A stretch of 64,000 nt of DNA from Chloroflexota bacterium. GTDB taxonomy: Bacteria > Chloroflexota > Dehalococcoidia > Lucifugimonadales > JADFKI01. A program made the translations under genes and the position numbers. Location: contig JAQBUT010000017.1 in NCBI GenBank assembly GCA_027623195.1, positions 1 to 64,000 of the forward strand, read 5' to 3'. Below the pieces are notes generated by a model. It did no database searches. It was not told the DNA's origin and saw nothing but the letters and a program-made list of their open reading frames with translations. Within the stretch, counting starts at the first letter, position 1, and the number at the start of each line of letters is the position of its first letter. Shown one piece after another: positions 22,254-38,567 of the stretch.

Positions 22254-23340
22254 CAGTCAACACCTCCTCCAGTGCGGCGACCAGGCGCCGGCAATCTTCC
22301 ATCTGCCTAACTCCGATACGAATGTAATTCGGCAGACCAAAGGACGTACAGTCACGTACGCATATGCCGTATTCCATAAGCAATCTGAGGCGAACGGTAG
22401 CGGCATCACCCACAGAGGCCAGAAGAAAATTCGCAGCGCCCAATCTGCATTGCAGTCCCAAGGTGACCAGCGCATCCTCGAGATACGCTTTCCCCAAACT
22501 AACAGCCTCTCGGCCGCGTTTAAGGTGGTCTTGTCGGCCAAGGCACATCACGCCCGCCGCCTGCGCCGCTGCATTGACGCTCCAGCTATATTGACGGGCT
22601 TTCACTCTGGCAACCGTCTCCGGATTGGACAGCATGTAGCCTAATCGCAGGCCAGTCAAAGCGTAGTCCTTGGTCATGGAGCGCAGCAATACGACATTAG
22701 GGATGTCCAGTAAAGGACGGGAATCCCAGGCTTCATCAACGAAGGAGACGTAGGCCTCATCCAGCACCAGCACGCCGCTCGCAGAGGTCGCTTCCGCCAC
22801 CTGACGAACCTCGTCCTCCCCCAGATAAGCACCTGTTGGATTGTTGGGGTTGCACAGGAAAACCATTCCTGGACTGGTATCCTGGATAGATCTGCACGCT
22901 TCGGAAATATTCCACCGAAAGTCGTCGGCCTCGTTGGAGGAAATCTCCACAGGCTCAACACCCTGCGCATTGCAGGCTGCTAGGTACTCCCCGAAGGTAG
23001 GCCCCAGAATCACGGCTCGGTCGCCCTCGCTCAGAAACGCTGTGGCCAGCAGATGAATCAGCTCTGTGGAGCCGTTGCCAGCCAGGACCTGGTCAGCATC
23101 CAGATCGAGATGCGCGCCCAATGCCTCCCGCAACTCCAGGCAGTCAGAGTCCGGGTAAGCGGCAAGGTTGATATCTGCGATGGCCTCCATCACACCCGAC
23201 GGCGCGCCCAGCGGGTTGATGCTGGAGCTGAAGTCCAAGACCGCCCGCGGGTCCAGCCCTAGCCGTCGCAACTCAGCCAGGTTCAGCCCACCGTGTACGG
23301 GGTGGGCCCCCAGGTCTGCCTTGTGCCCTGTTTCCACCAT
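22246..23340 (-). CDS. cobD: L-threonine-O-3-phosphate decarboxylase
   Basis: HGG..DFSSSINPLG, GNGSTELI, CNPNNPTG, DEAY, RSMTK.Y.L.GLRLGY. Confidence 0.9.
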   Translation of the reverse strand: MVETGHKADLGAHPVHGGLNLAELRRLGLDPRAVLDFSSSINPLGAPSGVMEAIADINLAAYPDSDCLELREALGAHLDLDADQVLAGNGSTELIHLLATAFLSEGDRAVILGPTFGEYLAACNAQGVEPVEISSNEADDFRWNISEACRSIQDTSPGMVFLCNPNNPTGAYLGEDEVRQVAEATSASGVLVLDEAYVSFVDEAWDSRPLLDIPNVVLLRSMTKDYALTGLRLGYMLSNPETVARVKARQYSWSVNAAAQAAGVMCLGRQDHLKRGREAVSLGKAYLEDALVTLGLQCRLGAANFLLASVGDAATVRLRLLMEYGICVRDCTSFGLPNYIRIGVRQMEDCRRLVAALEEVLTDG

Positions 23341-24302
23341 CAGTAGACCAACACTCCTCGCACGTAAAGAACACCAAGAGCCAAGACGATTCCCAGTGCC
23401 GCGACTATATACGCCAGCCGTACTGAAGCGCCGATATCCGAGGCATCGGGGTCACGGTTGCCCTCGCCAATGCGGTACTGGTCCGGCTTCTCAAGGACCA
23501 CGCCCAGCAGTCCCGACATAGCGCCGATGGTCCAACCAGCGTTAGGACTGGCCGTCAGACGTTGAGCGCTGATCATTACAGACCACCCGCTTTTTACCGA
23601 GAGGCCTCTAACAGACCCAGCCAGGAGTATTAAGCCCGCGCTGATCCTTGCCGGTATCAAGTTCACCAGATCATCCAACTTCGCAGAAGCCTTTCCGAAA
23701 TACTCGTACCGGCCTCGATAGCCCACCATACTGTCCAGGGTATTCATCGCCCGGTATGCGAAGGCCCCGGGCAGGCCAAGCAGCGCGAAGGCCAGCCATG
23801 GGCCGATGTAGCTATCCGTAGTATTCTCGGCTACGGATTCCACAGCAGCCGCAGCCACCAGGGGAGAAGCCAACGCCTGCGCATCCCGACTCACCAGGCT
23901 TTGAAGGCTATCCCTGGCGTCGTCAAGTCGCTCTGCTTGCATGGCCTCACCCGTCGCCTGAGCGGCCTGCGCCAGACCCTTGACCGCGAAAGTGGTCTTG
24001 AGCAGCACCGCCCCACCCACGACATAGGCCAGCGGGCCAATCTCTCGAAGTCCCAGCATCGCCAGCCACGCAAGACCTCCCGCCACCAGTGGCAAGCATA
24101 CCGCCATAATCGAGCCGGATGTTACGGATTTGGCAGGAGAGGACTGCGGAAGCCAACTATCCAAGAACGATATCGCGTTCCCGATCCACACTACCGGATG
24201 AAGTCGCGCGGGAGGTTCCCTTAAGCCCAGGTCCAGCGCCAGCGCCAGAAGCAACACGCCGCCATCGAGGTACCACTGCCCAGTCCACGGTAGCCAATCC
24301 AT
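23340..24302 (-). CDS. cbiB: Adenosylcobinamide-phosphate synthase
   Basis: HPVVWIG, LVSRD, ESVAEN..D, YRA.NTLDSMVGY, SPNAGW. Confidence 0.93.
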   Translation of the reverse strand: MDWLPWTGQWYLDGGVLLLALALDLGLREPPARLHPVVWIGNAISFLDSWLPQSSPAKSVTSGSIMAVCLPLVAGGLAWLAMLGLREIGPLAYVVGGAVLLKTTFAVKGLAQAAQATGEAMQAERLDDARDSLQSLVSRDAQALASPLVAAAAVESVAENTTDSYIGPWLAFALLGLPGAFAYRAMNTLDSMVGYRGRYEYFGKASAKLDDLVNLIPARISAGLILLAGSVRGLSVKSGWSVMISAQRLTASPNAGWTIGAMSGLLGVVLEKPDQYRIGEGNRDPDASDIGASVRLAYIVAALGIVLALGVLYVRGVLVY

Positions 24303-24309
24303 TGCCGGA

Positions 24310-25083
24310 TTACACCAATCCCGCCAGAGGCGATTGTAATGCCAACGGTGAGTTCGCGATAAGAATAACGGCCATCACCAGCACCGCGACCTCAGACACC
24401 TCGTTGATTGCTCCGTATATGTCCCCTGTCACGCCTCCCAGCAGACTGGAAGCCCATCGGCCCAAACCCCAGGCCACGGCAGATACCAGGGCCATCAGGA
24501 CTATGCCCAAGACGCCAACCAACAGGAAGCCAGCAACCAACGCCGTTATGATTCCAAGGGCAAGTTGCCACGGCCGTCTACCAGACTGAAATGCAGTCCC
24601 CAACCCCTGCGACCTGACGTAAGGAAACAGGTCCATGGAAAGCTGGACCCCCCACCGCGCCAGGCAAGGAAAGAGCGCCAGGACCAACACTCTGGACTGA
24701 TCGGGAATGCTCGCCAGCGCCGTGACCTTCAAAAGAAGCAGCATCGTAACGCCGATAACGGCGAAGGCACCTACGTGCGAGTCTTTGAAAATCTCCAGGC
24801 GGCGTTCTCGGGTGAAGCCTCCCAATAGAGCATCGCAGGTGTCCATAAAGCCATCGAGGTGTAGTGCGCGAGTTAGCGCAATCAACAGGGTAACCAGCAC
24901 AGCCGACAACAGAAGAGTTGGCAGCACAGGCCTCAAAAGAAGATCCAGGCCAGCCAGAATACCGCCGAGAATGAGACCCACCAGCGGGAAGTACGCGCGG
25001 GCCGCGGCTAGTTGCATCGGCGTATCGCGGGGTGCGACGGGCAGTATGGTCATAAAGCCAATTGCCAGTCGCAGGGAGTTCAT
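24310..25083 (-). CDS. cobS: Adenosylcobinamide-GDP ribazoletransferase (cobalamin synthase)
   Basis: LHLDG..DT.D, KDS.VGAF, GGVTGD.YGA..E; hydrophobic. Confidence 0.93.
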   Translation of the reverse strand: MNSLRLAIGFMTILPVAPRDTPMQLAAARAYFPLVGLILGGILAGLDLLLRPVLPTLLLSAVLVTLLIALTRALHLDGFMDTCDALLGGFTRERRLEIFKDSHVGAFAVIGVTMLLLLKVTALASIPDQSRVLVLALFPCLARWGVQLSMDLFPYVRSQGLGTAFQSGRRPWQLALGIITALVAGFLLVGVLGIVLMALVSAVAWGLGRWASSLLGGVTGDIYGAINEVSEVAVLVMAVILIANSPLALQSPLAGLV

Positions 25084-26171
25084 TAACTGGGCTCCGAGGT
25101 CAGTACCTGCTCATCTTCTCTGTCGGAAACGCCGGCCTCGCCGAACGTAGCCATATTCGACAGGCACGCCGCTGCTGTCTCGACCAGCGACATCGCCAGC
25201 ACGGCACCAGTGCCTTCGCCCAAGCGCAGGCCCAGGTCCAGCAGTGGCCGTAACTTGAGATGAGACAGCACAGCCCTGTGCCCCTTCTCGGCAGAGCGAT
25301 GTGAGGCGAACATGTAGTCGCGCGCCTTGGGGCAGATCCCGTAGGCAATCAGTCCAGCAGCCCCGGAAATAAATCCATCCAACACGACGGCTCGTCGCAT
25401 GCCAGCGGCCCCTAAGACCACACCGGCCAAGACCCCGATCTCGAATCCGCCCACCTTGGAAAGAACGTCCAATGCATCATCGGCGTTTGGCTGATTTACA
25501 TCCAAGGCCTTTTGAATAACCGCAGCCTTCAGCACCAGTTCCTCGGGCGTGCGCCCTGTGCCCTTGCCCGTTAACTCCGAGGCGGACTTCCCGGTGATGG
25601 CCGAGGCAATTGCGCTTGAGGAGGTGGTGTTGCCTATGCCCATGTCTCCGGTAGCGATGAGATCGGCGCCAGATTCAGCGGCCTCGATAGCCAGATGAAC
25701 GCCCGCTAGAACGGCGGCTTCGGCCTGCTCTCGCGTCATGGCCGGGCCGAGGGTCATATCGTTAGTGCCCCTGCCGATTTTAACCACGCGCAGGTCGGGG
25801 TGATGCGGAATGTCACCAGCTACGCCAGCGTCCACGATGATCTGCCTTACCCCCAGCTGATTGGACATCACGCTGACAGCGGCCCCGCCTGCCAGGAAGT
25901 TCAGGACCATTTGGGCCGTGACTTCCTGCGGGTAGGCTGTAACGCCCTGGGCGACAACACCGTGGTCTCCTGCGGCAACGATGACAACCTTGCCACTGAT
26001 GCTCGGCAGTTCCGTCTGAAATATGCCTGCCAATTGAATGGAAACGTCTTCCAGTCGACCGAGGCTTCCCGGTGGCTTCGTCAGGTTCCGCTGACGCGAC
26101 TGCGCACGCCGCATGGCACCCGAATCGGCGGATTCAATTTTCGCTATCGCTTCCGCAAGTTTTTCGTTCAT
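25083..26171 (-). CDS. cobT: Nicotinate-nucleotide:dimethylbenzimidazole phosphoribosyltransferase
   Basis: LTKPPGSLG.LE, DHGV, GDMGIGNTT, GGFEI, DGFI, LRLGEGTGA. Confidence 0.95.
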   Translation of the reverse strand: MNEKLAEAIAKIESADSGAMRRAQSRQRNLTKPPGSLGRLEDVSIQLAGIFQTELPSISGKVVIVAAGDHGVVAQGVTAYPQEVTAQMVLNFLAGGAAVSVMSNQLGVRQIIVDAGVAGDIPHHPDLRVVKIGRGTNDMTLGPAMTREQAEAAVLAGVHLAIEAAESGADLIATGDMGIGNTTSSSAIASAITGKSASELTGKGTGRTPEELVLKAAVIQKALDVNQPNADDALDVLSKVGGFEIGVLAGVVLGAAGMRRAVVLDGFISGAAGLIAYGICPKARDYMFASHRSAEKGHRAVLSHLKLRPLLDLGLRLGEGTGAVLAMSLVETAAACLSNMATFGEAGVSDREDEQVLTSEPS

Positions 26172-26291
26172 AGTCCTTCTTCTGTTCCAGATGTTCCAGG
26201 AATCCGTTCGTCCCTATGCAATCTGACCCGGCCAAAAACACTTGTCTCTGACGGAAGTATGGCCCCTATTACATTCCAAGAATACCCAAAA

Positions 26292-26858
26292 TTAAAATTC
26301 GAGGCCGGGCTGGGCTTTGATGCCCTGCTCCCTATATGGATGCTTGATCTCGCGCATCTCCGTAACCAGGTCTGCGAACTCAATAAGCTCGTCTGGCGCA
26401 TGGCGGCCCGTTATGATGACATGCAGCATGTGCGGCTTCTGCTTCAGCACTTCGATGACGTCCTCGACGGCTATCCAGCCGTAGTGCATCGTATAGGTGA
26501 ACTCATCGAGGATAATCACCTCTTGCTCGCCGGATAAGATGGCGGCCTTGGCGTTCTCCCACTGAGCCCTGCCCAAGTCCTGTGTTTCGTCCATGTTCTT
26601 GGTGCGCCACGTGAAACCGTCACCCATGGCTACCATGTCGATGCCCAGCTTTTTGGCAGCGCGGCTTTCCCCAAACTGAGAACCCGTGTGCTTCAAGAAC
26701 TGGAACATCTGGACCTTCATATCGCGGCCCCATGCGCGGAAAAGCACACCCAAAGCTGCGGTGGTTTTGCCCTTACCGTTGCCGGTATTGACCACTACCA
26801 GGCCCTTTTTGATGCGTGGACCTTTTACCGGCTGATGTTCTTGTGTCGCCTCTGTCAT
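26292..26858 (-). CDS. cobO: Cob(I)yrinic acid a,c-diamide adenosyltransferase
   Basis: [31 protein letters not shown]...KHP. Confidence 0.95.
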
Positions 26859-26908
26859 ATGGCCTCCTGAGCGGGTCGCTAAAGGATATCACAAAGCTTC
26901 CAGAACAT

Positions 26909-27688
26909 TTAGACGGACGATCCAGGTCGGCGCTGGGCATGAGGTTCCGGCCATCGGGCGTGCTCCCCAACGACCTGCCCTCCGAGGAAGTGCTCGTCCA
27001 CAACCTTGTCTGCGGCGGCCTCGTTCATGCCGCAGTACCATACGCCTTCTGGATATACCACCATCATCGGGCCGAGGTTGCAGGGATACAGGCAACCTGT
27101 CTGGGCAACAAGCACATGCTTGTCCAGCAACCCTTCATCAAGAAGTCGGCCGTTGAGATGGTCCCATACGTCCCCCGAGCCCTGCGCAGTGCACCTTGGG
27201 CCTCTGCACTGCAACAGGTGGTACTTATGAGGCGGTATCAGGGACCACTCCGGCTCCCCGAACTCCAATGAGCCTCCATCCAGGGATATAGGCTCACCCT
27301 GCCCAGCCTCGGAGACCAACCGAGCTACGGCGTCAGCCATGAATGGGTGATCCCCAAGAGGCCCACTCACCACTACTTGCACCTCAGAGCCTGTCCACCG
27401 GGCCAGCCACCGCCTGATTACCTTAAGCAGCCATTTCCCGAGGTGTCGGTCGTCGGGAACGTACACCGGCACCACCAGGATTTGCTCGGCTCCGGACTCC
27501 GCGCAAATACCTAACGCCTGCGGCAAAGAGGGCATGGCCTGGTCCACGAACGCGCCGACAACCGACTGATATTTGCCAGTGCTCTCCAGCCGCTTTACCA
27601 GCCCGTCTAGCTGCTGCTTCGGGGCGTCACTGTACCCGCCTCTGCTAAGCAGGACAACGGAGCTTCTCATCATCCCACCATCACTCAC
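26909..27688 (-). CDS. CbiX-like domain fused to a thioredoxin-like [2Fe-2S] ferredoxin
   Basis: N-terminal AFV.QA.PSL..AL..VVP..PLG.HP (CbiX fold, catalytic His not evident); C-terminal C.GPRC...GCL.PC.LGP...VYPEGVWY. Confidence 0.7.
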   Translation of the reverse strand: MSDGGMMRSSVVLLSRGGYSDAPKQQLDGLVKRLESTGKYQSVVGAFVDQAMPSLPQALGICAESGAEQILVVPVYVPDDRHLGKWLLKVIRRWLARWTGSEVQVVVSGPLGDHPFMADAVARLVSEAGQGEPISLDGGSLEFGEPEWSLIPPHKYHLLQCRGPRCTAQGSGDVWDHLNGRLLDEGLLDKHVLVAQTGCLYPCNLGPMMVVYPEGVWYCGMNEAAADKVVDEHFLGGQVVGEHARWPEPHAQRRPGSSV

Positions 27689-28515
27689 GACTCTATTGAA
27701 CCGATTTGCGCCGTCACAGGCACATGGCTGGATTCGGTGACGGCTCTAACGCCGCTGCCGAAGAAGGTAATTCTGGGGGTTCCTGTGAGTGGATTGGCAT
27801 CCACCATCGAGCCAACTCCAAACACCCTCTTGATTAACTCAGGTCGAAGCACGTCCGCCGGACAGCCGGACTCCACTATCTCCCCGGCCTGAACCACGTA
27901 GATTCGATCGCAGTAGGCGGCGGCCAGGTTGAGGTCGTGCACGGCCGCTATGGTCGTGACTCCCAGCCCCTTTACCAGGTCCAGAATCTCCAACTGATAT
28001 CTGATATCTAGATGATTTGTAGGCTCGTCCAAAACGAGGAATTTCGTTTGTTGAGCAAGGGCCCTGGCTATCAAAACGCGTTGCTTCTCTCCACCGGACA
28101 GGGTGTTGAACTCCCGCTCCGCGAAGCCTTCCATGCCTACTCTGGCCAGCGCCTCCGCGATTATCTCCAGGTCCATTGCCGTATCCCTCTGGAACAGGCC
28201 CTTGTGCGGAGTGCGACCCATGGCTACTATTTCTTCCGTAGTGAAATCGAAATCCGACGTTGCCTCCTGCAACACAACGGCTGTTCGGCGGGCCGCCTCC
28301 TTGGCCGTTATCTGCCTGATGTCCTCTCCGTCCAAACTGATGAGGCCGGCAGCCGGCTTTAGCGCTCTGTAGATGCAGCGCAGCAGGGTCGATTTGCCGC
28401 TGCCGTTAGGCCCTACAACGCCGATGAACTCTTTATCTAGCGCATGCAGCCCTATATCACGGATGATTGATCTGCCATCCGCATTCCAGGACACATCCTG
28501 AACTCGTAGCTTCAT
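27685..28515 (-). CDS. ABC transporter ATP-binding protein (iron-complex/cobalamin type)
   Basis: GPNGSGKST, LSGGEKQR, LDEPTNHLD, HDLNLA. Confidence 0.92.
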   Translation of the reverse strand: MKLRVQDVSWNADGRSIIRDIGLHALDKEFIGVVGPNGSGKSTLLRCIYRALKPAAGLISLDGEDIRQITAKEAARRTAVVLQEATSDFDFTTEEIVAMGRTPHKGLFQRDTAMDLEIIAEALARVGMEGFAEREFNTLSGGEKQRVLIARALAQQTKFLVLDEPTNHLDIRYQLEILDLVKGLGVTTIAAVHDLNLAAAYCDRIYVVQAGEIVESGCPADVLRPELIKRVFGVGSMVDANPLTGTPRITFFGSGVRAVTESSHVPVTAQIGSIES

Positions 28516-29624
28516 TAACGCCCCCCTGCCAGCGAGTTTTTGCGCCACCTAAGAAGAATAAAGAAGAACGGCGCACCAAACAGCGCAGTTATCACGCCGA
28601 TAGGCAGCTCTTGCGGCTGGACGACTGTTCTTGCGCCAACGTCCACCCATATGAGAAAGATTGCACCGAATAGTGCGCTGGCCGGCAGCACTCGCCTGTG
28701 GTCGGAGCCGACTACCAGCCGGACCATGTGCGGAATCATCAGGCCAACGAAGCCCACCGGGCCCGCTATGGCTACAAGCACTCCGGTCAGCAGTGCGGAA
28801 ACGGCCAACAAGAGGAATCTGAACTTCTGAGGGTCAACCCCAAGGGCGTTCGCCGTTTCCTCGCCAGCCAGCAGCGCGTTCATGGACCTCGAATTCAAGA
28901 CCAGCAGAAGAGTGCCAATGACGACCACTACGGCGGGCAACACCAGGAATTCCCACTTGGCGCCTGCCAGACTGCCCAACAGCCAGAATACCACCGCCCT
29001 AACTGCCCTCTCGTCCCCTATGAATAGAACGAGGCTAGTAACCGCCGTAAGAATATAGGCAGTAGCCACGCCTGCCAGAATGAAGCGCGTAGGAGAGATG
29101 CCCCCCGAGCCCTGAGCTAGGGTCATGACGATAAGAAAAGAGCCTACCGCGCCCGCGAAGGCCGCTATCGAGAGCGAATACGGAGGGAAAAGGTCGTACC
29201 CCAGCATCAGCACGCTTACGGCGCCAACCGAAGCCCCCGCCGAGGTTCCAAGAATGTAGGGGTCGGCTAGTGGGTTTCGGACGGTGGCCTGCATCGATAC
29301 GCCCACTACCGCGAGGCCCGCACCAACAAGGCCGCCAAGCAACACCCTGGGCATTCGAATCAGCCATGCAATCTGATCCTGGCCCCTGGTCCAGTCGCCC
29401 TGCTCCATACCGAATGTGTGTACGCCGATGATCTCCCAGACCGTCAGCGGCGATATGTATACTGGTCCGATGGTGACTGCCAGCGTAACGGATAGCAGCA
29501 GGAGCGCCGACAGGGCCGCGACTAACACCCCGAACTTCGCGCGCGTGTCCATCATCTCCCCCTGCGCAAGCAGACGGGAAATGGCCAACCTCGGCATTAC
29601 GGGCATGGTCCAGCTTTTCAACAT
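28515..29624 (-). CDS. FecCD/BtuC family ABC permease
   Basis: IR.PR, RNPLADP.ILG, GFVGL.IPH..R, ELPIG; true start may be near 29555. Confidence 0.9.
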   Translation of the reverse strand: MLKSWTMPVMPRLAISRLLAQGEMMDTRAKFGVLVAALSALLLLSVTLAVTIGPVYISPLTVWEIIGVHTFGMEQGDWTRGQDQIAWLIRMPRVLLGGLVGAGLAVVGVSMQATVRNPLADPYILGTSAGASVGAVSVLMLGYDLFPPYSLSIAAFAGAVGSFLIVMTLAQGSGGISPTRFILAGVATAYILTAVTSLVLFIGDERAVRAVVFWLLGSLAGAKWEFLVLPAVVVVIGTLLLVLNSRSMNALLAGEETANALGVDPQKFRFLLLAVSALLTGVLVAIAGPVGFVGLMIPHMVRLVVGSDHRRVLPASALFGAIFLIWVDVGARTVVQPQELPIGVITALFGAPFFFILLRWRKNSLAGGR

Positions 29625-29651
29625 TTAGCGTACTCTTCGATTCGTTTGCGG

Positions 29652-30677
29652 CTAAGGAAACTTTTCCGGGTACAGTCCTTCAGCTATCAGTCGTATGGCA
29701 GTCTGGTTACGTATTCCCGGCACCAGGGAACTGAACTTGAGTATCACGAAACGTTCATTTTGCACCGCCGCGATTTGGGAGAGGACCGGACTGTTGTTCA
29801 GCAGTTCAATTTTCTCCTCGGCCGTTGACCAGACCGCATCTGTCAGGATGATAACTTCGGGGTCGCGGTCGATGACCTCCTCCCAACTAACAGTGCTCCA
29901 GCGGCCCTCGACGTCATCGAAAACGTTAGTGCCGCCGGCCTCTTCGATGAGAGGCGTGACCAGACCGCAGCAAACAGGTGTGTAAGGCGCGTCATCGCCG
30001 GAATCGTACAGGAAGGCACGAACAGGCTCGCCAACGACTCCTATGGATGACCGTATAGCTTGCAAATCGCCCTTAATGGACGTGACCAGCGCGGCCGCTC
30101 TCTCCGGCACACCGAATATGGCGCCCATGTTCATGATGTCGGCATAAACGTCCTCCATCGTGTCCGGGCCTTCATCGCAGACCGCATGCGTAAGGTAAGA
30201 GTCGATTCCCAGCGTCATTAATCCTTCTTGGGAACCTGCATTCAGGTCGTCGAAGGAGCTGCTGAAGCCGCCGTAAATGAAGTCCGGCTCCGCGTTCAAC
30301 AGGACCTCCCGGGAAGGGTACTCCTCGGCCAGCACTTCGATAGATTCGTAGGCATCCTGAAACTCCGGCAAGATGAAATCATCGATGTACGCCGTCCCCA
30401 CCATATGGTCCTGTAGTTCCAACGCCAGCATCAATTCCGTTACGTGCTGGTTCATTGTGACGGCCCGTTCCGGCGGCGCCTCGTAGGTGAACGTAATGCC
30501 ACAGTTCTCGATAGTGACCGGAAACAGGGCCATCTCGGAATCTGCCTCAGCCGTGGGCTGAACGGCAACGGCAGGAGCCTCCCCGGCGCTTGGCGGGCCC
30601 TGCTGCTCATCACCACTGCAGGCCAGGGCCACGAAAAGCAGTCCAATCAGGCCTGTGAAAAATAATAGCGACTTCAT
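29652..30677 (-). CDS. ABC substrate-binding lipoprotein (BtuF/Fe-siderophore class)
   Basis: Lipobox LAC, PERAV, E.LL...PD, VSWE.V...DPEVI. Confidence 0.88.
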   Translation of the reverse strand: MKSLLFFTGLIGLLFVALACSGDEQQGPPSAGEAPAVAVQPTAEADSEMALFPVTIENCGITFTYEAPPERAVTMNQHVTELMLALELQDHMVGTAYIDDFILPEFQDAYESIEVLAEEYPSREVLLNAEPDFIYGGFSSSFDDLNAGSQEGLMTLGIDSYLTHAVCDEGPDTMEDVYADIMNMGAIFGVPERAAALVTSIKGDLQAIRSSIGVVGEPVRAFLYDSGDDAPYTPVCCGLVTPLIEEAGGTNVFDDVEGRWSTVSWEEVIDRDPEVIILTDAVWSTAEEKIELLNNSPVLSQIAAVQNERFVILKFSSLVPGIRNQTAIRLIAEGLYPEKFP

Positions 30678-30687: not shown

Positions 30688-32691
30688 TCACCCGTCTCTA
30701 CGTTGGTCTATCGCACCACGTACCGCCGAGCGGATAGCATCCGCCCGCAACTCCTGCAGTGGAATGTACTCCCCACCGAGGGCATCAGCTACGGTCTGGA
30801 CCAGGCCGAAACGGTTTGATCTGGGCGCAGGGTCCAGCACTACCGACTGCACTTTGTCCTCTCGGAAAATCTCGCAGACCCGCAACGCCTCCTCGAAGGG
30901 ATCGCCGCCTCGAGAGCTGAAGTTGGCTCGGCAGTCCGAAACCAACACAAGCAAGGGAGGAGTGTCAGGGTCGCGCTGCTTATGTTGCGCGATGATCTTC
31001 CGAGCATCCAGCAGGGCATCGGCAAGAGGCGTTCGGCCGCCCGTGGGCAGTGAGTCCAGCCTATCCTGCGCCAACTTTGCGCTACCCGTTGGCGGCAAGA
31101 CAACCTCCGAGGATGTTCCTCGAAATGCTACCATCGCCACACGGTCCCGCCGCTGATAGGCGTCCAGCAGCAGAGATATCACCGCACCCTTGGTGGCCAC
31201 CATGCGTTGCTGCGCCCCCATGGAACCACTGGCATCCACAACGAATACCACCAGGTTGCCCACCCTAGACTCCCGAACTTTTTGACGCAGGTCCCACGGC
31301 TCTATCTGCAATGCCAGGTTATTGTCGGTGTACGACTGTCGCCTTTTTTGAAACGGCGCTGCTACCCGTACCGTGGCGTCCAGCGCCAGGTCGGTAATCT
31401 TACCAATTGGCAGCACCGCATCTACGTAACGGCCTCTACGGTCGCGCACCTGGCTGGTTGTCCGCCTGCCGTGGCTAGCACGCTGACGCTGGTCAAGCGC
31501 GCTGAGATTCAAGGGTTTGACCTGGAACGACTCCCCGGTCTGAAATACGTTCTCGTCCGACCCGCCGTTGGACGGCTTTTCGTCCTTAGGAGGTTCCGGT
31601 GGCGGCGTGCCCCCTAAATCAGGACTGCTCTGATTGGATGGCGGTGGCTCATTTTCCATGAGCTCCTGGGCCATCTCCTGAAGCTTTTCCCTGTTCATTT
31701 CAGGATCGTCGAAGGGCTGGCGGCGCATTCGATGAAGCAGCGCCATCTCCGCCACCTCAAGCACGTCATCGAAGGTAACGCTGGTGCGCCCTCGATAGGC
31801 CGCCAACGTCTGGGACGCCTTGTAGATGACGATGTCGGCCCTCAGGCCATCAACGCCATGCTCGGCGCACAGTCTGGCAATGAATGTCAGTGTCGCGTCA
31901 TCGACCGTCACAGACGACAGGAGGTCCTTGGCGGACGCAATCTTGGCTCGCTCCTCCAACTCTAGCTCTTCCCACTTCGGCCTAAAGGAAGCGGGGTCAG
32001 ACTCGTAAGCAATACGCCGCTTTACGACCTCTACTCTACGCTCCGGGTCGGAGATGTGGTCAATCTCCACGGCCAAGCCGAACCGGTCTATGAACTGCGG
32101 CCTCAGGTCGCCCTCTTCCGGGTTCATGGTGCCGATGAGCAGAAACTGGGCCGGATGCCAAAAGGATATGCCTTCGCGCTCCACGAAGTTACGACTCATA
32201 GCGGCAGAGTCCAACAGCACGTCAACGACATGGTCGTTAAGCAGGTTAACCTCGTCGATGTACAAAATGCCTCTGTGGGCGGACGCCAGCAGGCCCGGCT
32301 CGAAACGCCTCTGCCCCTCGCGAATGGCCGACTCGATATCCAGTGTGCCGACCACGGCCTCCTCAGTGGCGCTAACCGGCAACTCCACCAGGCGCACCTG
32401 TCGCCGGACGGATTGCCGTGTTTCGTTGCCATGACAAAAGCTGCAATCAGAGAATGGCGAGGCAGGGTCACAGCTATAGGGGCAGCCTGTCACCACATCC
32501 AGCTCAGGCAACAGCGCAGCAAGCGACCTGGCAGCCGTAGACTTGGCGGTGCCCTTTTCGCCGCGAATCAGCACGCCGCCTATGCCTGGATTTATTGCGT
32601 TTAGGATAAGCGCCAGCTTCATGCGCTCCTGGCCCACGATGGCGCTGAACGGAAAAATCCTGTCTTGTGCAATCTGGCTCTGTTGGCTCAT
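30688..32691 (-). CDS. Chelatase ATPase subunit, ChlI/ChlD type (AAA+, Pro-rich linker, vWA); probable CobN partner
   Basis: FPFSAIVGQ, GEKGTAKS, LYIDEVNLL, MNPEEG.LRPQ..DRFG, vWA DASGSM...GGRTPL. Confidence 0.88.
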   Translation of the reverse strand: MSQQSQIAQDRIFPFSAIVGQERMKLALILNAINPGIGGVLIRGEKGTAKSTAARSLAALLPELDVVTGCPYSCDPASPFSDCSFCHGNETRQSVRRQVRLVELPVSATEEAVVGTLDIESAIREGQRRFEPGLLASAHRGILYIDEVNLLNDHVVDVLLDSAAMSRNFVEREGISFWHPAQFLLIGTMNPEEGDLRPQFIDRFGLAVEIDHISDPERRVEVVKRRIAYESDPASFRPKWEELELEERAKIASAKDLLSSVTVDDATLTFIARLCAEHGVDGLRADIVIYKASQTLAAYRGRTSVTFDDVLEVAEMALLHRMRRQPFDDPEMNREKLQEMAQELMENEPPPSNQSSPDLGGTPPPEPPKDEKPSNGGSDENVFQTGESFQVKPLNLSALDQRQRASHGRRTTSQVRDRRGRYVDAVLPIGKITDLALDATVRVAAPFQKRRQSYTDNNLALQIEPWDLRQKVRESRVGNLVVFVVDASGSMGAQQRMVATKGAVISLLLDAYQRRDRVAMVAFRGTSSEVVLPPTGSAKLAQDRLDSLPTGGRTPLADALLDARKIIAQHKQRDPDTPPLLVLVSDCRANFSSRGGDPFEEALRVCEIFREDKVQSVVLDPAPRSNRFGLVQTVADALGGEYIPLQELRADAIRSAVRGAIDQRRDG

Positions 32692-33461
32692 TGCCCGCTC
32701 CCCGATCCATTCAACGACCGCTGCACCTTGGCAAGAAACTCCACGACATGTGGCAGCACCTGCTCCTTGTGCAAAAACGCCTGGTCGTGGTTAAGGCCCG
32801 GCAATGAGAAGAACCTGGCGTTGGGCAACTGGCCAGCGAACTCCTTTGTAAGCATGTTGCGCTCATCGGCCTCTCCAGTGAACAGCAACACCGGCACCTG
32901 TAAACCCTTCGCGATCTGCTCCACTTCAAAGGGAGGCCAGTCCATTATCTTTTTGCGGAAGGCAATGAACACGTCGTAATCCTTGGGGTCGCGCCTGGAC
33001 TCCTCGCCTGCCAATATTGCGTCCCGCCGCTGTTCCCACCGGACGACGGCCTTCACATCATCGGCCTTCTGCTCTGCGGTTCGGGCAAAGGGATGCTGTC
33101 CGCCAAGAACAAATGAATAAAATCGATCGGGCGAATACACCGCCAGCGAGTAGCCGGCCCTGGCGCCCATGGAGTAACCAAAGCAATGCGCCTTATCGAT
33201 ACCCTCAGCGTCCATCGCAGCGATCACGTCAGAGGCCATAAAATGCGGTTCGTAATCCTCGGCCGCGTACAACTGGTCGCTTGCACCATGTCCACGCGCG
33301 TCCATCATCAAAAGCTTATAGCTGTCTTTCAGCGCGTCCACGTAGCCGCCCTTCTGAAACTGCACCATCGACGTAGTCAGCCCATGCAACAGCACCAGCG
33401 GCGGGCCATCGCCCTCCACGTGGTAGTGGATCTTCACTCCATTGTTATCTACGAATGGCAT
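32688..33461 (-). CDS. Alpha/beta hydrolase
   Basis: LLHG, DARGHG.S, GYSMG nucleophile elbow, GEAD, GLNH. Confidence 0.88.
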   Translation of the reverse strand: MPFVDNNGVKIHYHVEGDGPPLVLLHGLTTSMVQFQKGGYVDALKDSYKLLMMDARGHGASDQLYAAEDYEPHFMASDVIAAMDAEGIDKAHCFGYSMGARAGYSLAVYSPDRFYSFVLGGQHPFARTAEQKADDVKAVVRWEQRRDAILAGEESRRDPKDYDVFIAFRKKIMDWPPFEVEQIAKGLQVPVLLFTGEADERNMLTKEFAGQLPNARFFSLPGLNHDQAFLHKEQVLPHVVEFLAKVQRSLNGSGSGQ

Positions 33462-34237
33462 TATGCTATCTTCGAACCGACTTTCTGGTTAACGTTTGCA
33501 AGGAACTGTCTTACATGGGGCAAGGCCTCGTGGCTGTACCTGAACCCCTGCCCGTGGTCCAGACCCGGAAGCGACACGAACTCGGCATTCGGCATCTGCT
33601 CCGCGCACCGCTTGACATCTTGAAATAACGAATCAGCCTCGCCGACGTAAACGAAGCATGGCATGGTCATAGTGGGAATGATGTCCGAGTTGTCGGGACG
33701 GTCCTTGGTCAGGGCACGAAGGGCCTTCAGATCGTTGGCCTGCTTGCGAACCCTGTACCAATCTGAGTCGGCCCGTTCCGGCGCGCTGGCAAGGGCATTC
33801 TTGATGTAGGCTTCCATGTCACCCCGCTCAAATGCCCTTCGTGTTGCCGCCATGCTGCGCTCGTACGGATGCGACGCCCCAATGACCAGCGCGGTGAAAC
33901 GCTCCGGCGCGTACTTGGCAAGTCCGTAGCCAATGTAGCCGCCCATGGAGTACCCAAAGTAGCCGGCCTTATCTATGCCTAGCTCGTTCAGCACGCCAAC
34001 GATATCCGACACGGACGTCTCCAGCGAGTAGCTGTCAGGGCCGTGTGGCTTACCGCTGTACCCGTGCCCACGATGGTCTATCAGAATAAGCCGGTAGTCG
34101 TCTTTCAGGCCGCTGACCCAACCGTTCTCGTGCCAGTCTGCGATGGAGCCGCTGGTGCCATGCATCAGCACAAGAGGCGGCCCCTGGCCATCCACCTGGT
34201 AATGAATCTGAACACCGTTGTTATCAAAGTAAGGCAT
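33461..34237 (-). CDS. Alpha/beta hydrolase (paralog of the adjacent gene)
   Basis: LMHG, DHRGHG.S, GYSMG, GEAD, GLDH; start set to ATG 34237 (MPYFDNNG), matching the paralog N-terminus. Confidence 0.88.
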   Translation of the reverse strand: MPYFDNNGVQIHYQVDGQGPPLVLMHGTSGSIADWHENGWVSGLKDDYRLILIDHRGHGYSGKPHGPDSYSLETSVSDIVGVLNELGIDKAGYFGYSMGGYIGYGLAKYAPERFTALVIGASHPYERSMAATRRAFERGDMEAYIKNALASAPERADSDWYRVRKQANDLKALRALTKDRPDNSDIIPTMTMPCFVYVGEADSLFQDVKRCAEQMPNAEFVSLPGLDHGQGFRYSHEALPHVRQFLANVNQKVGSKIA

Positions 34238-34245
34238 GTCTCTCG

Positions 34246-37200
34246 CTAATCCCCCGTAACCTGGCGCTCCTGGCGCTCCTCCAAAACCGCCTCGGTTTGG
34301 AGGTACACCCGGCGCAACTCGCTCAGTGTTTCTTCCGACGGATTCTCCCACATATCGCGATCAGCCGCCTCCATCAGGCGCTCCGCGATTGCCCGAAGCG
34401 CCCAAGGATTGCTCTCCTTGAAAAACTCCTGCATAGCCGGGTCCAGAACGTAGGCCTCAGTAACCTCCTGGTACATCCAGTCGTCGATGATCTGGGCCGT
34501 TGCATCGTACCCGAAGATGTAATCAACAGTTGCGGCCAGCTCGAAAGCGCCCTTGTAGCCGTGACGCTTCATGGAGTCCATCCATTTGGGATTGACCACG
34601 CGGCTGCGGAACACCCGCCGAGCCTCTTCTTTCAGGTCCCGCGTCTTTAGCTGACTGGGGTCTGCGGAATCGCCGAAGAACTGCCTAGGGTTCTCTCCTG
34701 CCAGGTGGCGAACGGTGGCAATCATGCCGCCGTGAAACTGCATGTAGTCATCCGAGTCAAAGATGTCATGCTCTCGGTTGTCCTGGTTTTTCGTCGCTAC
34801 GTCTATTGTGGCAAACCTTCTGCGGAACTCCTTGATTGCGCTCACGCCGTGCCGCTGCCTGGTGTAGGCGTAAGACCCCCATGCCGTGTAGACGTTGGCC
34901 AGGTCCTCGTCAGACTGCCAGTTCCCCTGGTCTATGGCCTGCAGAATGCCAGCGCCGTAGCTCCCGGGCTTGCTGCCAAAGATTCTGAACAGGGACTCTG
35001 ATTCAGCGTCTTCCTGATTTGCGCCCTCCGCCTTTTTCTCAGCGATGTCGGCGTTGTAGTGTTTAAGAATGAAGTTTTTGTCCTCGGGCTCTTCCAGACC
35101 AATCACGCTCTGGAAGGCGTCATCCATCAGCCCAATAAGGTTCTGGAAGGCATCGCGGAAGAAACCGCTGATGCGGACGGTAACGTCGATGCGCGGCCGC
35201 CCCAGCTCCTCTAGCGACATGATCTCCAGGCCGGACACGCGACGGCTCTCCTCTTGCCACACAGGCCTTACGCCCATGAGCGCAAGTATCTGCGAGATGT
35301 CGTCGCCGTGCGTGCGCATGGCCGACGTTCCCCAGACTGATATGCCGACCGACTCAGGATACTCACCTTCGTCCTTGAGGTAGCGTTCCGCCAGGGAGTC
35401 AGCTAACTCTTTGCCAATCTGCCACGAAGTTTCAGAGGGCAGACTGCGCGGGTCCATAGAGTAGAAGTTGCGGCCTGTAGGCAGGACGCCAGCCATGCCC
35501 CGTGTCGGCGCGCCGGCGGGCCCAGGCGAGATGAATCCCCCATCGAAGCCACGCAGCAGCGCTGTAATTTCGTTGGTGGTTTGCGCCAGGGCCGGTCGAA
35601 TGTGGCTACAGACGTATTCCAGAACGTCGGGAACCCGACCTCCCTTTTCCAGGAGGCTACCCACGATACCCTGAACGGCCTCTGCATCAAATCCACCAAC
35701 GGCTGATGTTTCCAAAAGGTTGCGGGCTATGGCCTCTAGTCGCTCTATGACGTCGCCGGCGCTGTGGATTGGCTCGGATTCGCTGACAGTAGTCAGTATC
35801 GAGGGCAGGTCATCAGCATTAACAGCGACAGCTCTGTCCTTCATCATCGCCTGGTAATCCAGGCCCAGCGCATCGCCGATGGCGTGACGCAGGCCTGGGA
35901 CGTCCCCATTGTTGAGCCGCGTGAGCGAAAGCAGAAGACCGGTCAGCATCTCGCCCTCAGGAGGCTCGCCTAGCGTGTGGAGCCCGTCGCGGATTTGCGC
36001 GTCCTTAAGCTCGCAGATGTAACCGTCAATGTGCAGAATGAAGTCATCGAAATCATCAGGAATCTCGTTAACGCCCAGGTCCTCGTTGAGGCGCGCCTTT
36101 TGCACGACCTCCCAAATCTGCTGGCGTAGTATGGGCAGCTTCTGCGGGTCCATGCCCGCCGCCGTGGCGTACTCGTCCATAAGCTGCTCACAGCGCGTTA
36201 TGTCGCCGTAGCTGTCCGCAGTGGTCATGGCTGGCACCAGGTGGTCGATGATAACGGCATGGGTCCGGCGCTTGGCCTGCGTACCCTCTCCAGGATTGTT
36301 GATGATGAAGGGGTAGAAGTGCGGAATATCCGGCAGGCACACCTCAGGGAAGCATGAGCGAGACAATCCCACGCCCTTGCCCGGCAGCCACTCAAGGGTA
36401 CCGTGCTTACCCAGATGCAAGATCGCATCCGCCTTGTAGTCGTCACGAAGCCAACGGTAGAAGGCCACGTAATGATGCGTGGGCATGAACTCAGGGCTGT
36501 GGTAGATGGCGATAGGATTCTCGCCGAAACCACGCGAGGGCTGTATGCCTATAAAGACGTTGCCGAAGCTAACACCCGCCATGAAGAGATGCCCATCGTC
36601 GGTGTAGACCGTTCCCGGCGGGTCACCCCAGCTCTTTGTCATTTTCTCCTGAACGTCCGCTGGAAAGCTGGAAAGCTGCTTACTGTACACCTCTTTGGAT
36701 ACGCGGCCCTCGGCGTTGCGCATCTGGTCCGGCGTCAGGAACTCCACGTCGTACGTGCAGCGCTCGATAAGCTCACGCATCAGGGCATCGCCATCTTCGG
36801 GTATGCCGTCTACCGTGTAGCCTGCATCCTTCATGGCGTTCAGGACGTTGATAGCTGAGGCGGGCGTGTCCAAACCAACCGCGTTACCCAAGCGGGAGGC
36901 CTTGGTCGGGTAGTTGCTGAGTACAAAGGCGATCTTACGGTCTGCAACAGGAATGCGGCTGAGCTTGGCATACCGCGAAGTAAGCGAAGCCAACGACCTT
37001 ATCTGCTCGATATCAGGCACGTAGCGCTTGACCGTACTCATCAAATCGCCGCCGCCGTTAGAGGCAACAGACTCCTTAAAGGAGACAGGCACCGTTATGA
37101 TGCGTCCGTCCAACTCAGGCAATGCGACGTTCATCGCGATGTCCAGTGGACTCAGGCCTATGTCGCGCGCCTGCCAATCGGCTTGTGATTCCGTGGACAC

Positions 37201-38076
37201 GATGGCCTGGAGGATAGGTACGTCCAACTGCTCCAGTACCTTGATATCCCAGCCAACCTCGGCGTTGGCGCTATCAGAGATCCCTGGCTGGTGGCTCATG
37301 GCGAAGCTCTGTGTGCAAATCACCACGTCTACTATGGCCTTGCCATCTCCGTCCATCAGGTACTTGTGGAACACCGCGCCGTTATTTTCCCTCAGGCTGG
37401 AGCAGAACACAGGCATCACGTTACAGCCCTGCGCTTCTACCTCCTCCACAATGGCGTCGACGAATTCCAGGTTGGAGCTAACCCAGTGGGCCCTGTAAAA
37501 GAGCAGCGCCGCAGTAGGTTTTTCAGGAACATAATGGCTTTGCCGATAATCTTTGGCGCTAAGAGCATCCAGGCTGCCAGGTCGATATATGCCGTCGGAA
37601 GCCAGTGGCTTGGGTGGCTCGTAGCCGTACTCCGTGCCCAACACCTCGTCACTGAGAAAGCGCAGTACGTTGGCTATGTTGACCACGCCGCCGTGGTTCA
37701 GGTATTCAAAGCTGTTTTGGGCAACAATGGCAGGTGTCGAGGAACGGCGCTCGAATACCACGTCGCGGGCGGGCTCGCCGGAGCAGGCGACCATGGGCGT
37801 ATTGCCCTCCCTGCAAGCGGCCTCAAGAGAGCCAAAATGCTCGCCTAGCGCCTTGTCTCCACCCAGCAATCTCAGCAGCACAAGGTCCGCCCCCGGCAGC
37901 GTATCGCTGAGGAATTTTTCGAAGGCCTGTTCGTCCTGCACCAAGGAGAGCGGGTTGATGGCCTGCGTATTACGCAGCCCTTCCGGCATTTTCCCTATAG
38001 CCCCGCTCAGAGCCAAAATATCCGTGTCCGATGTGGTCAGAAATAAAATCATGGGCCAGCTTTCAGCAGTTGGCAT
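34246..38076 (-). CDS. cobN: Cobaltochelatase large subunit
   Basis: 1276 aa; N.ALPE.DGR, HLGKHGTLEWLPGK, GEG.QAKRR, LPTGRNFYS, RIDVT.RISGFFRD, RVVNPKW. Confidence 0.95.
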   Translation of the reverse strand: MPTAESWPMILFLTTSDTDILALSGAIGKMPEGLRNTQAINPLSLVQDEQAFEKFLSDTLPGADLVLLRLLGGDKALGEHFGSLEAACREGNTPMVACSGEPARDVVFERRSSTPAIVAQNSFEYLNHGGVVNIANVLRFLSDEVLGTEYGYEPPKPLASDGIYRPGSLDALSAKDYRQSHYVPEKPTAALLFYRAHWVSSNLEFVDAIVEEVEAQGCNVMPVFCSSLRENNGAVFHKYLMDGDGKAIVDVVICTQSFAMSHQPGISDSANAEVGWDIKVLEQLDVPILQAIVSTESQADWQARDIGLSPLDIAMNVALPELDGRIITVPVSFKESVASNGGGDLMSTVKRYVPDIEQIRSLASLTSRYAKLSRIPVADRKIAFVLSNYPTKASRLGNAVGLDTPASAINVLNAMKDAGYTVDGIPEDGDALMRELIERCTYDVEFLTPDQMRNAEGRVSKEVYSKQLSSFPADVQEKMTKSWGDPPGTVYTDDGHLFMAGVSFGNVFIGIQPSRGFGENPIAIYHSPEFMPTHHYVAFYRWLRDDYKADAILHLGKHGTLEWLPGKGVGLSRSCFPEVCLPDIPHFYPFIINNPGEGTQAKRRTHAVIIDHLVPAMTTADSYGDITRCEQLMDEYATAAGMDPQKLPILRQQIWEVVQKARLNEDLGVNEIPDDFDDFILHIDGYICELKDAQIRDGLHTLGEPPEGEMLTGLLLSLTRLNNGDVPGLRHAIGDALGLDYQAMMKDRAVAVNADDLPSILTTVSESEPIHSAGDVIERLEAIARNLLETSAVGGFDAEAVQGIVGSLLEKGGRVPDVLEYVCSHIRPALAQTTNEITALLRGFDGGFISPGPAGAPTRGMAGVLPTGRNFYSMDPRSLPSETSWQIGKELADSLAERYLKDEGEYPESVGISVWGTSAMRTHGDDISQILALMGVRPVWQEESRRVSGLEIMSLEELGRPRIDVTVRISGFFRDAFQNLIGLMDDAFQSVIGLEEPEDKNFILKHYNADIAEKKAEGANQEDAESESLFRIFGSKPGSYGAGILQAIDQGNWQSDEDLANVYTAWGSYAYTRQRHGVSAIKEFRRRFATIDVATKNQDNREHDIFDSDDYMQFHGGMIATVRHLAGENPRQFFGDSADPSQLKTRDLKEEARRVFRSRVVNPKWMDSMKRHGYKGAFELAATVDYIFGYDATAQIIDDWMYQEVTEAYVLDPAMQEFFKESNPWALRAIAERLMEAADRDMWENPSEETLSELRRVYLQTEAVLEERQERQVTGD

Positions 38077-38141: not shown

Positions 38142-38172
38142 AAAAAAACTCCGACCTTCTTTTTGGTCGGAG
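38142..38172 (-). terminator. Riboswitch expression-platform terminator
   Basis: CTCCGACC-8 nt-GGTCGGAG followed by T7 on the minus strand, between the aptamer and cobN. Confidence 0.8.
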
Positions 38173-38246
38173 CCTCATCACGTAACCTCATCATAGAGGT
38201 AACGCATGGAAGGGCTTCCACCAGCGAGAAGCAAACTTCCAACGTC

Positions 38247-38457
38247 CCGGCAGGTCTCCTGACTTACGGATCGATGCTCGTGCGGCGCCTTCCCAGTCTG
38301 GTTAGACCAGTGGCATGCTGCCGCAAGCTCCCCGCTTACAGTGGCGCGGCCGTGAGGGACTCTCACCCTCTTCCCTTCCTTTAAGTCGCCGGCAATTCAC
38401 CTTGCAGACAGCAAACTCTTTTACGGAGCCATGCCTGTCGGCTACGAACCAACTACT
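38247..38457 (-). ncRNA. Cobalamin (B12) riboswitch
   Basis: Minus strand reads GGTTC...AAGGGAA.AGGGTGAGAGTCCCT...GCCACTGTAA...GCCACTG...TGGGAAGG...AAGTCAGGAGACCTGCC. Confidence 0.92.
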
Positions 38458-38567
38458 CTAAGGACTAACCCGGACATTGACCTGTGTGTTATTAAAAAAC
38501 GAATTTATGCAACGAGAGAAACTTTAACACCGCCGCAATAGGGTGTCAACTTGGGACAGGGTTTGCC

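Follow-up and report, generated by a model that had tools for sequence, protein, structure and literature searches.

Why should two alpha/beta hydrolase genes lie between the two subunit genes of a cobaltochelatase, in an operon led by a cobalamin riboswitch? The question is raised by a Chloroflexota contig (JAQBUT010000017.1) of which we analyzed one stretch of 64,000 nt, called the window below. In it, hydA and hydB separate cobN from chlID, and a first-pass annotation had proposed that their products may be undescribed corrinoid amidases or esterases used for salvage or remodelling.

Layout of the operon and nature of the two hydrolases

The features of the operon, in the order in which they are read, are as follows.

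38521..38549, minus strand: sigma-70-type promoter match, TTGACA-17 nt-TAAAGT with an extended TG, 10 of 12 consensus positions (3 promoter-type matches in the region against 3.1 expected in shuffles)
38232..38408, minus strand: cobalamin riboswitch aptamer, RF00174, 105 bits against a gathering threshold of 31.5
38145..38176, minus strand: intrinsic terminator hairpin, 12 pairs and a T run, which would be the likely expression platform
34246..38076, minus strand: cobN, cobaltochelatase large subunit, 1276 aa (PF02514; TIGR02257 at 1277.8 against a cut-off of 822)
33461..34237, minus strand: hydA, alpha/beta hydrolase, 258 aa, triad S97-D202-H228, paralog clade A
32688..33461, minus strand: hydB, alpha/beta hydrolase, 257 aa, triad S97-D199-H225, paralog clade B
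30688..32691, minus strand: chlID, fused AAA+/VWA chelatase ATPase subunit, 667 aa (PF01078, PF17863, PF13519)
27685..30677, minus strand: FecBCD/BtuFCD-type ABC importer, from profile matches
17947..27688, minus strand: remainder of the operon, with a CbiX-ferredoxin fusion, cobO, cobT, cobS, cbiB, a cobD-like aminotransferase, cobC, cobQ, cobU, a pduX-like kinase and cbiE (cobD, cobQ and cobU identified from their translations)

Eight nucleotides separate the cobN stop codon, which ends at 34246, from the hydA ATG; the overlaps are 1 nt between hydA and hydB (TAATG) and 4 nt between hydB and chlID (ATGA). This spacing suggests that both genes are co-transcribed with cobN and chlID. The two-hydrolase layout and its spacings, as first annotated, proved exact on re-measurement, and the genes do take the second and third places of the operon, behind cobN and with RF00174 upstream. 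The aptamer is the only RF00174 match listed for this genome; it was matched in 26 of 27 family genomes and stands just upstream of cobN wherever cobN was located. A longer hydA frame, opening with a GTG at 34351, was rejected in favor of the ATG at 34237, because all 33 aligned homologs share the M1-P2 that begins there. GC3 is 0.71 in both hydrolase genes and 0.67 to 0.71 in the operon. A recent foreign origin was rejected because both GC and GC3 match those of the operon, and decay into pseudogenes was rejected because the triads are intact and dN/dS is well below 1.

ChlID scores 778.1 with TIGR02442, just under the cut-off of 779.45; the available text of PMC9227772 proposes ChlI and ChlD products as replacements for CobS and CobT. 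The best NCBIfam match of the importer is a putative F420-0 transporter (240.8 against a cut-off of 392.4), with BtuF at 35 against 234, and its binding protein was found only in the window's genome and in G002 among the 27 family genomes. The de novo ring genes cbiC, cbiX, cbiD, cbiT, cbiL, cbiF, cbiG, cbiH, cbiA and cbiE are present, and the genome is therefore independent of corrinoid salvage, which counts against the salvage role first proposed for the hydrolases. It carries CbiX, of the early-insertion route, as well as CobN and ChlID. A 742-aa Gly-rich PKD protein is encoded in the window between cbiH and cbiA, with gaps of 17 and 3 nt.

HydA and HydB match PF00561 (77.8 and 60.8 bits against a cut-off of 25.8) and are 40% identical overall, with 48% identity in the N-terminal core, 45% in the C-terminal core and 12% in the cap, which bears out their earlier description as paralogous serine hydrolases with differing caps. 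S97, D202 and H228 are invariant in all 33 aligned sequences, which have a G-x-S-x-G elbow and the canonical Asp/His order. An AlphaFold2 model of HydA (mean pLDDT 95.1, pTM 0.92) has a core sheet with a helical cap, and its nearest Foldseek neighbors (TM 0.73 to 0.85) are the small-substrate esterases and lactonases TtEst (PDB 4uhc), Est1 (6eb3/8v16), the enol-lactonase PcaD (2xua) and Est816 (5egn). These enzymes share the fold with its helical cap and the Ser-Asp-His triad, and have a GxSMGG elbow, a motif labelled 'lipolytic family V'. The best sequence matches to enzymes of this type have E values of 2e-22 to 3e-15, but identity in the fold alignments is 23 to 28%, the caps are not conserved and substrates are not transferable. 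The available literature on these enzymes, in the parts consulted, makes no tie to B12. HydA falls below the curated cut-offs for PcaD (75.5 against 255.85), MenH (72.7 against 208.55), RutD (54 against 238.5) and BioH (31.9 against 206.95), and HydB lies similarly under the same equivalog cut-offs. Their subfamily, uncharacterised so far, is widespread and common among Dehalococcoidia.

Judging by fold and motifs, Ser97 of the GYSMG elbow would attack an ester carbonyl, activated by His228 and Asp202 in HydA or His225 and Asp199 in HydB, and the reaction would pass through an acyl-enzyme intermediate. HydA and HydB would then be working cytoplasmic serine hydrolases, probably of small esters or lactones, and their strongly differing caps may give them differing substrate ranges.

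Retention, loss and variety of the slot genes within the family

The core order of cobN-chlID cobaltochelatase operons is the same in many Dehalococcoidia, but this family differs in having one or two hydrolase genes between the chelatase genes, as in 17 of 24 cobN-bearing family relatives. Retention at this level spans about 23% CobN divergence. The slot hydrolases are under purifying selection, with dN/dS of 0.08 to 0.23 in 16 of 17 pairs, the remaining pair being saturated. Their retention in the family also exceeds that of an upstream flavin-binding gene outside the operon, which lies within 1.5 kb in only 4 of 20 g4 genomes (one with a cut flank). In addition, among the family genomes examined besides G000 (the window's genome), G001 and G004, every copy of a close homolog occupies the cobN-chlID slot in all 14 that have one.

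In the remaining 7 of the 24, no homolog reaches E<=1e-30, and all 7 keep cbiD; on the CobN tree, the hydrolase-free genomes occupy three separate branches. In family f97, cobN abuts chlID in 6 of 6 genomes, in near-identical operons, and the f97 CobN, 77-78% identical, is placed among the family's own CobN. In f21, another conserved small gene, encoding DUF7676, takes the same position. Unrelated cargo also occurs in the junction (DUF4268, a methylase/specificity protein, an EEP nuclease and GIY-YIG), and Uma2 and HepT genes occur at other junctions of the operon.

Three distinct paralogs use the slot, with caps that share 12-25% identity, and the paralog found there varies between genera; clade B, that of HydB, was found among family genomes only in G000 and G001. 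A single clade of cob-linked hydrolases was rejected in an AU test (p=8e-30) with 13 cob-linked and 27 other rows, the 13 having been picked by context after a first tree, on a tree built by a quick method. Local duplication inside the operon was rejected because, for each paralog, closer relatives exist away from cob loci, and because the single clade was rejected. The family ancestor may have taken in already-diverged paralogs at the cobN-chlID junction, probably as a tandem block. The inserted genes would then have become tightly coupled and would now be transcribed under the B12 riboswitch; they are lost singly or together.

A position wedged between both chelatase genes recalls BchO (TIGR03056), the closest precedent and one overlooked in the first-pass annotation. 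Like hydA and hydB, bchO is a gene for an alpha/beta hydrolase in tight coupling with the ATPase genes of a class I chelatase: in the available parts of the two sources it lies directly behind bchI-bchD (PMC6052148), with a 4-nt overlap (PMC13583976). The 4-nt hydB/chlID overlap puts the present genes in the same relation to a class I ATPase gene, although that of a cobalt, not a magnesium, chelatase. HydA and HydB could accordingly be imagined as chelatase accessories, arisen independently of BchO, that bind or process the tetrapyrrole substrate or product, and the DUF7676 gene of f21 in the same position fits such a role. We consider this very unlikely. The TIGR03056 scores of 43 and 35.3 bits, against a cut-off of 172.55, are below those for the unrelated PcaD and MenH, and near-identical chelatases do without a hydrolase in all six f97 genomes and likewise in seven genomes of the family itself. 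To our knowledge, BchO's own function is unproven. The settings differ as well: BchO has a Mg-chelatase partner and is listed, in the portion of the source available, as a photosynthesis-cluster gene, whereas hydA and hydB have cob/cbi neighbors, are patchy within one family and are missing from sister chelatase operons.

Homologs beyond the family

Conserved linkage to cobN and the riboswitch, which the first-pass annotation had set as a check on its proposal, stood inside the family but failed outside it. No homolog follows cobN in any of 25 class-level cobN loci (those with at least 900 nt downstream) or at any of the 17 loci examined in other families of the order. Nor do the hydrolase subfamily and cobN show an association at the genome level: of the homolog-bearing genomes sampled, none of 11 at class level has cobN (1.1 expected), and 1 of 29 at order level does (2.2 expected), with the two genes 2.5 Mb apart. 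These scans scored the best 8 candidates or fewer per genome. Three genomes with close homologs (G004, G030 and G080) gave no CbiD or CobS match, and in G004 the relative placed nearest to HydA (60%) lies on a contig separate from that genome's riboswitch-led importer. Among the loci listed, many of them short, cob genes occur within 6 kb at 3 of 74 genomic homolog loci without the cobN arrangement and near the homolog at 1 of 80 metagenome loci. No family dominates the 127 neighbor genes scanned around homologs. Tandem hydrolase copies occur away from cob genes too, with three in G318.

No riboswitch was found in the other homolog regions scanned (0 of 11 and 0 of 9), which bears on whether co-regulation itself was selected without any corrinoid chemistry. 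B12 riboswitches control B12-independent alternatives such as metE. With that precedent, and given the long retention behind the riboswitch, the enzymes might be useful when B12 is scarce, in a B12-independent bypass or in the release of lower-ligand precursors from esters. The operon, however, lacks genes that would partner them in such a route, and the slot paralog differs between genera, and together with the riboswitch scan this makes the idea highly improbable.

Two homologs outside the slot might be second links to B12. In f41, a homolog lies inside an operon for a binding protein, permease and ATPase of BtuFCD type, and relatives of the binding protein have a cobalamin riboswitch at 12 of 20 loci. 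The Atlas matches of the binding protein are PF01497 clusters only; it may resemble algal CBA1. The f41 importer operon was scanned and no riboswitch was found in it; the riboswitch-importer-cobS locus of these genomes lies elsewhere, apart from the hydrolase-bearing operon. The homolog is present in 0 of 28 related importer loci, and the two closest relatives of the binding protein (53-54%) have neither a riboswitch nor cob genes nearby. In the L141/L147/L366 lineage, a homolog lies two genes behind cobQ-cobU-pduX. As a second cob link this is weak: a dehydrogenase gene lies between, and the gap in L366 is 555 nt. Neither L141 nor L147 showed a riboswitch, and L145, a sister copy to the three, stands in a non-cob context.

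Corrinoid chemistry or passengers of the operon

HydA and HydB would, if they acted on corrinoids, hydrolyze lactone, ester or amide bonds in forms that are damaged, foreign or metal-free; CobN and ChlID would then re-insert cobalt and the lower pathway would finish the corrinoid, which would give CobN-ChlID a job beside early-insertion CbiX in a genome that has both. The place of the genes behind the riboswitch, their persistence at a dN/dS of 0.08 to 0.23 in 17 of 24 relatives, the absence of CbiZ from all 27 family genomes and the f41 homolog inside a BtuFCD-type operon favor such a role. CbiR itself was discovered adjoining cob genes, according to the available part of PMC7733943. We nevertheless regard the role as quite unlikely. 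The adenosylcobinamide amidohydrolase CbiZ (PF01955) is likewise a hydrolase associated with cobamide genes and has the kind of role first proposed here, and the cobamide phosphodiesterase CbiR, of the AP endonuclease 2 superfamily, is likewise a non-canonical hydrolase found by its place among cob genes. Both are of other families, as the first-pass annotation had said and the available part of PMC7733943 agrees. The same source, as far as available, gives CbiR as a likely TIM barrel with 80% of its homologs beside cobamide genes, across 22 phyla, against one family and 3 of 74 genomic loci listed here. No PF01955 match was found in the window's genome or in the 27 family genomes. A distribution complementary to CbiZ was rejected, as CbiZ was found in neither the hydrolase-bearing nor the hydrolase-free group, and the seven family genomes that keep cobN and cbiD without hydrolases have no CbiZ in their place. 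The binding protein of the window's importer was found in none of the 22 g4 genomes, 15 of them hydrolase-bearing. The missing f41 riboswitch, the separate riboswitch-importer-cobS locus, the 28 related importer loci without a homolog and the low likeness among the three caps also speak against corrinoid chemistry. Two of the three findings that the first-pass annotation had named as refuting its proposal, random contexts and absence from related cob operons, are largely what we observed, and the corrinoid amidase or esterase role is left unsupported. We found no paper joining beta hydrolase, cobalamin riboswitch and cobN, with the 2003 B12-regulon comparative genomics outside the comparison.

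Because relatives elsewhere lack a consistent link to B12, hydA and hydB most likely ride along on the operon, and HydA and HydB are probably lineage-specific hydrolases of small esters or lactones, kept by selection on their own activity and not by a need of the cobalamin pathway. Family retention, low dN/dS and the confinement of copies to the slot count against passengers, as do the f41 importer homolog, the L141/L147/L366 homolog near cobQ-cobU-pduX, and the three slot paralogs that form no clade, which repeated recruitment could explain. The subfamily may, though we think it unlikely, have entered corrinoid handling on more than one occasion, with three paralogs in the cobN-chlID junction and another in a BtuFCD-type importer, where its members would hydrolyze lactone, ester or amide groups of corrinoids that are damaged or lack their metal, or would aid the class I chelatase.

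Such recruitment, if true, would add a new class of corrinoid repair enzyme and a new fold in corrinoid salvage and repair, would account for the persistence of CobN-ChlID in producers with early insertion, and would open a way into the function of BchO and other chelatase-linked hydrolases; both questions could be tested with two small soluble proteins, HydA and HydB. If the two genes are passengers, the significance would be slight; the locus would then show plainly that a riboswitch operon can carry tightly coupled cargo, and it would warn against reading pathway membership from gene overlap or operon position.

Hydrolase genes and their operon

The two genes lie on the minus strand behind cobN, and the tight coupling described in the first-pass annotation was confirmed at all three junctions, the last with chlID, the gene for a fused chelatase ATPase subunit.

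34237-33461, minus strand: hydA, 258 aa, starting 8 nt past the cobN stop
33461-32688, minus strand: hydB, 257 aa, overlapping hydA by 1 base and chlID by 4 bases

Their placement in a B12-riboswitch operon also stands, as a cobalamin riboswitch (105 bits) precedes cobN; the stretch 5' of cobN also contains a promoter match, together with a strong terminator. From the spacing we infer that both are co-transcribed with the operon, whose GC3 they share. HydA and HydB exceed the PF00561 cut-off in a profile search, with triads S97-D202-H228 and S97-D199-H225, respectively, and all 33 aligned homologs keep the Ser-Asp-His triad unchanged. The two proteins are 40% identical overall, and the reported difference in their cap regions is borne out by 12% identity there versus 48% and 45% in two core parts.

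The predicted structure of HydA (pLDDT 95.1) best matches small-substrate esterases and lactonases (4uhc, 8v16, 2xua, and 5egn; TM 0.73-0.85, 23-28% identity), and sequence searches relate the hydrolases to the same enzymes. Neither protein reached a curated equivalog cut-off; HydA scores were 75.5 versus 255.85 for PcaD, 72.7 versus 208.55 for MenH, and 43 versus 172.55 for BchO. BchO is an alpha/beta hydrolase encoded directly 3' of bchI-bchD (PMC6052148, PMC13583976). It is the closest gene-order precedent, but HydA and HydB are not BchO members, and a BchO-like accessory role is quite improbable. We know of no proof of BchO function. No paper on a hydrolase in the cobN-chlID position was found in a literature search that left most subscription journals outside, and the pairing of CobN with ChlI/ChlD products has been described (PMC9227772).

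The subfamily is large and widespread: a threshold of E<=1e-20 admits 524 of 895 candidate proteins, and loci come from Chloroflexota, Proteobacteria, Bathyarchaeia, and others. The window genome has 34 PF00561 matches, of which only hydA and hydB belong to the close subfamily; its next best proteins reach E 1e-15 to 1e-17. Tandem copies also occur away from cob genes, as with three in genome G318. The names carried by close homologs put the window genome in Chloroflexota, class Dehalococcoidia. Judging by gene content, our guess is that it belongs to SAR202, a group described as having expanded sets of paralogous catabolic enzymes (PMC10444878).

Conservation within the family and controls beyond it

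The conserved linkage to cobN that the first-pass annotation proposed to check held inside the Dehalococcoidia family but not beyond it. Among family relatives, 24 of 26 have cobN (22 of 24 in a first set, plus G595 and G596), and in 17 of those 24 the cobN-chlID interval is occupied by one or two homologs. If hydA is called type A, hydB type B, and a further paralog type C, the slot holds A and B in G001, A alone in G002, and A and C in five genomes of genus g4. The remaining ten have one C-type gene each, a typing based on identity only in two of them. The other seven cobN-bearing relatives have no homolog anywhere in the genome at E<=1e-30; cbiD is kept in all seven and the riboswitch in six, and on the CobN tree the genomes without a hydrolase are spread over three separate branches. 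For the hydrolases, 16 of 17 pairs give dN/dS values of 0.08-0.23 (one pair is saturated), against 0.02-0.10 in the C-terminal portion of cobN, and hydrolase retention exceeds that of the upstream non-operon neighbour, found within 1.5 kb in 4 of 20 g4 genomes. The low dN/dS, together with hydrolase-free relatives that keep cbiD, suggests at the sequence level that these enzymes are functional and dispensable in the family.

Of 300 genomes sampled from the class, 11 had a close homolog, 29 had cobN, and none had both (1.1 expected), and no homolog lay downstream of cobN at the 25 loci with at least 900 nt of downstream sequence (four loci had less). Among 287 genomes of the order outside the family, 29 had a homolog and 22 had cobN; one had both, 2.5 Mb apart (2.2 genomes expected), and none of the 17 loci fetched from the 22 cobN genomes had a homolog downstream of cobN. 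These overlaps, from homolog counts that scored at most eight candidates per genome, show no enrichment and are too small to demonstrate avoidance. The sharpest control against a wider cobN-hydrolase link is family f97, whose CobN shows 77-78% identity and clusters with that of g4; cobN adjoins chlID directly in 6 of 6 loci. In a CobN tree, the sequences of the f97 loci (L236, L237, L241, L242, L243, and L245; five of six placed) fall among those of g4 with support 93/89, which suggests that the operon was transferred between the families.

Five homolog-bearing genomes were checked for corrin genes: G004, G030, and G080 gave no match to CbiD or CobS, G224 has CobS, and G046 has both. The nearest placed HydA relative (60%) is in G004, on a different contig from that genome's riboswitch-led importer.

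Neighbourhoods and further genes in the operons

Among the best 80 of at least 559 confirmed genomic loci, six share the cobN arrangement, their CobN proteins being 75-89% identical to the one in the window, and 3 of the remaining 74 have cob genes within 6 kb. At L141 and L147 a dehydrogenase intervenes, and at L130 the cob genes lie about 4 kb off on the opposite strand. Metagenome loci, many of them short, gave cob genes near 1 of 80 (L366, the same string as L141). Neighbour families were scattered across 127 of 135 flanking frames (eight were omitted as duplicates, second hydrolases, overlapping, or already scanned), the commonest being luciferase-like monooxygenases, DEAD helicases, and GNATs at four each. 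By contrast, 80% of cbiR homologs adjoin cobamide genes, across 22 phyla (PMC7733943), against the 3 of 74 seen here outside the cobN arrangement.

Elsewhere in the family the cobN-chlID slot holds DUF4268-like genes, a methylase/specificity protein, or an EEP nuclease or GIY-YIG gene, and other junctions hold Uma2 and HepT genes. Another gene, an apparent passenger, lies in the second cob operon of the window, flanked by cbiH and cbiA at distances of 17 and 3 nt:

44741-46969: 742-aa glycine-rich PKD-domain protein

Given this varied cargo and the tightly spaced 742-aa gene, tight spacing is no proof of pathway membership here. Meaningful co-regulation by the riboswitch ahead of cobN, without corrinoid chemistry, is very improbable.

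Several g4 genomes have Uma2-type tandem arrays between cbiB and cobD (L061:15523-18245, L063:16444-18274, L067:3011-4857). In family f21, a gene of about 136 aa is conserved directly 3' of cobN, often ahead of a cbtA-like gene; it is DUF7676 in the three scanned (L249:1004-1411, L253:3411-3899, L256:1066-1479) and a candidate chelatase accessory. At L289:2200-7969 in G003 the riboswitch leads an ABC importer only, at apparently the same chromosomal place (behind aroF and before a match of window 13851-14984, neighbours matched by eye), which suggests gain or loss of the cob operon at this site.

Corrin pathway and a possible corrinoid role

The early-insertion ring pathway is encoded 9-19 kb from hydA and hydB, so the window genome is a de novo producer.

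43361-53815: early-insertion ring operon (cbiC, two-domain cbiX, cbiD, cbiT, cbiL, cbiF, cbiG, cbiH, cbiA)
26909-27688: CbiX-[2Fe-2S] fusion, encoded in addition to CobN-ChlID

CbiZ and CbiJ had no match in this genome (87% complete). Nor did CbiZ turn up in any of the 27 family genomes; a substitute would thus have a place, but no complementary pattern is seen. The operon's binding protein (29652-30677) is matched with a far higher score by a putative F420-0 transporter model than by BtuF, and the g4 operons examined have a cbtA gene in its place; it may therefore import cobalt rather than B12. It was found in 2 of 27 family genomes, although each of the 27 has some PF01497 protein. A DUF6978-DUF1828 gene pair lies between the two cob operons (40745-41973, plus strand).

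Some findings stand against carriage of the hydrolases as passengers, among them their better retention than that of the upstream non-operon neighbour. The A, B, and C slot paralogs are not each other's nearest kin, and a single clade was rejected (p-AU 8e-30); capture of one block of old paralogs followed by differential loss could produce this, and repeated recruitment would explain it equally. Family f41 has a homolog (35% identity) whose gene is flanked by those of a binding protein and a FecCD permease:

L202:16-5535, L294:6530-12043, L295:7868-13372: tight string of two-domain binding protein, hydrolase, FecCD permease, and ATPase

For relatives of this binding protein, 28 loci were fetched and 20 of them scanned; 12 of the 20 have a cobalamin riboswitch. 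The scan found none at the f41 hydrolase-importer locus itself, the riboswitch-importer-cobS locus of these genomes is elsewhere, and none of 28 related importer loci carries a hydrolase homolog. That the subfamily was recruited more than once to corrinoid handling or chelatase assistance is rather improbable, and a corrinoid-processing role for HydA and HydB themselves, the proposal of the first-pass annotation, is unlikely. On the evidence of gene order and codon substitution, hydA and hydB are real, functional, family-specific additions to the B12 operon, and they are probably small-ester or lactone hydrolases carried in it as passengers.
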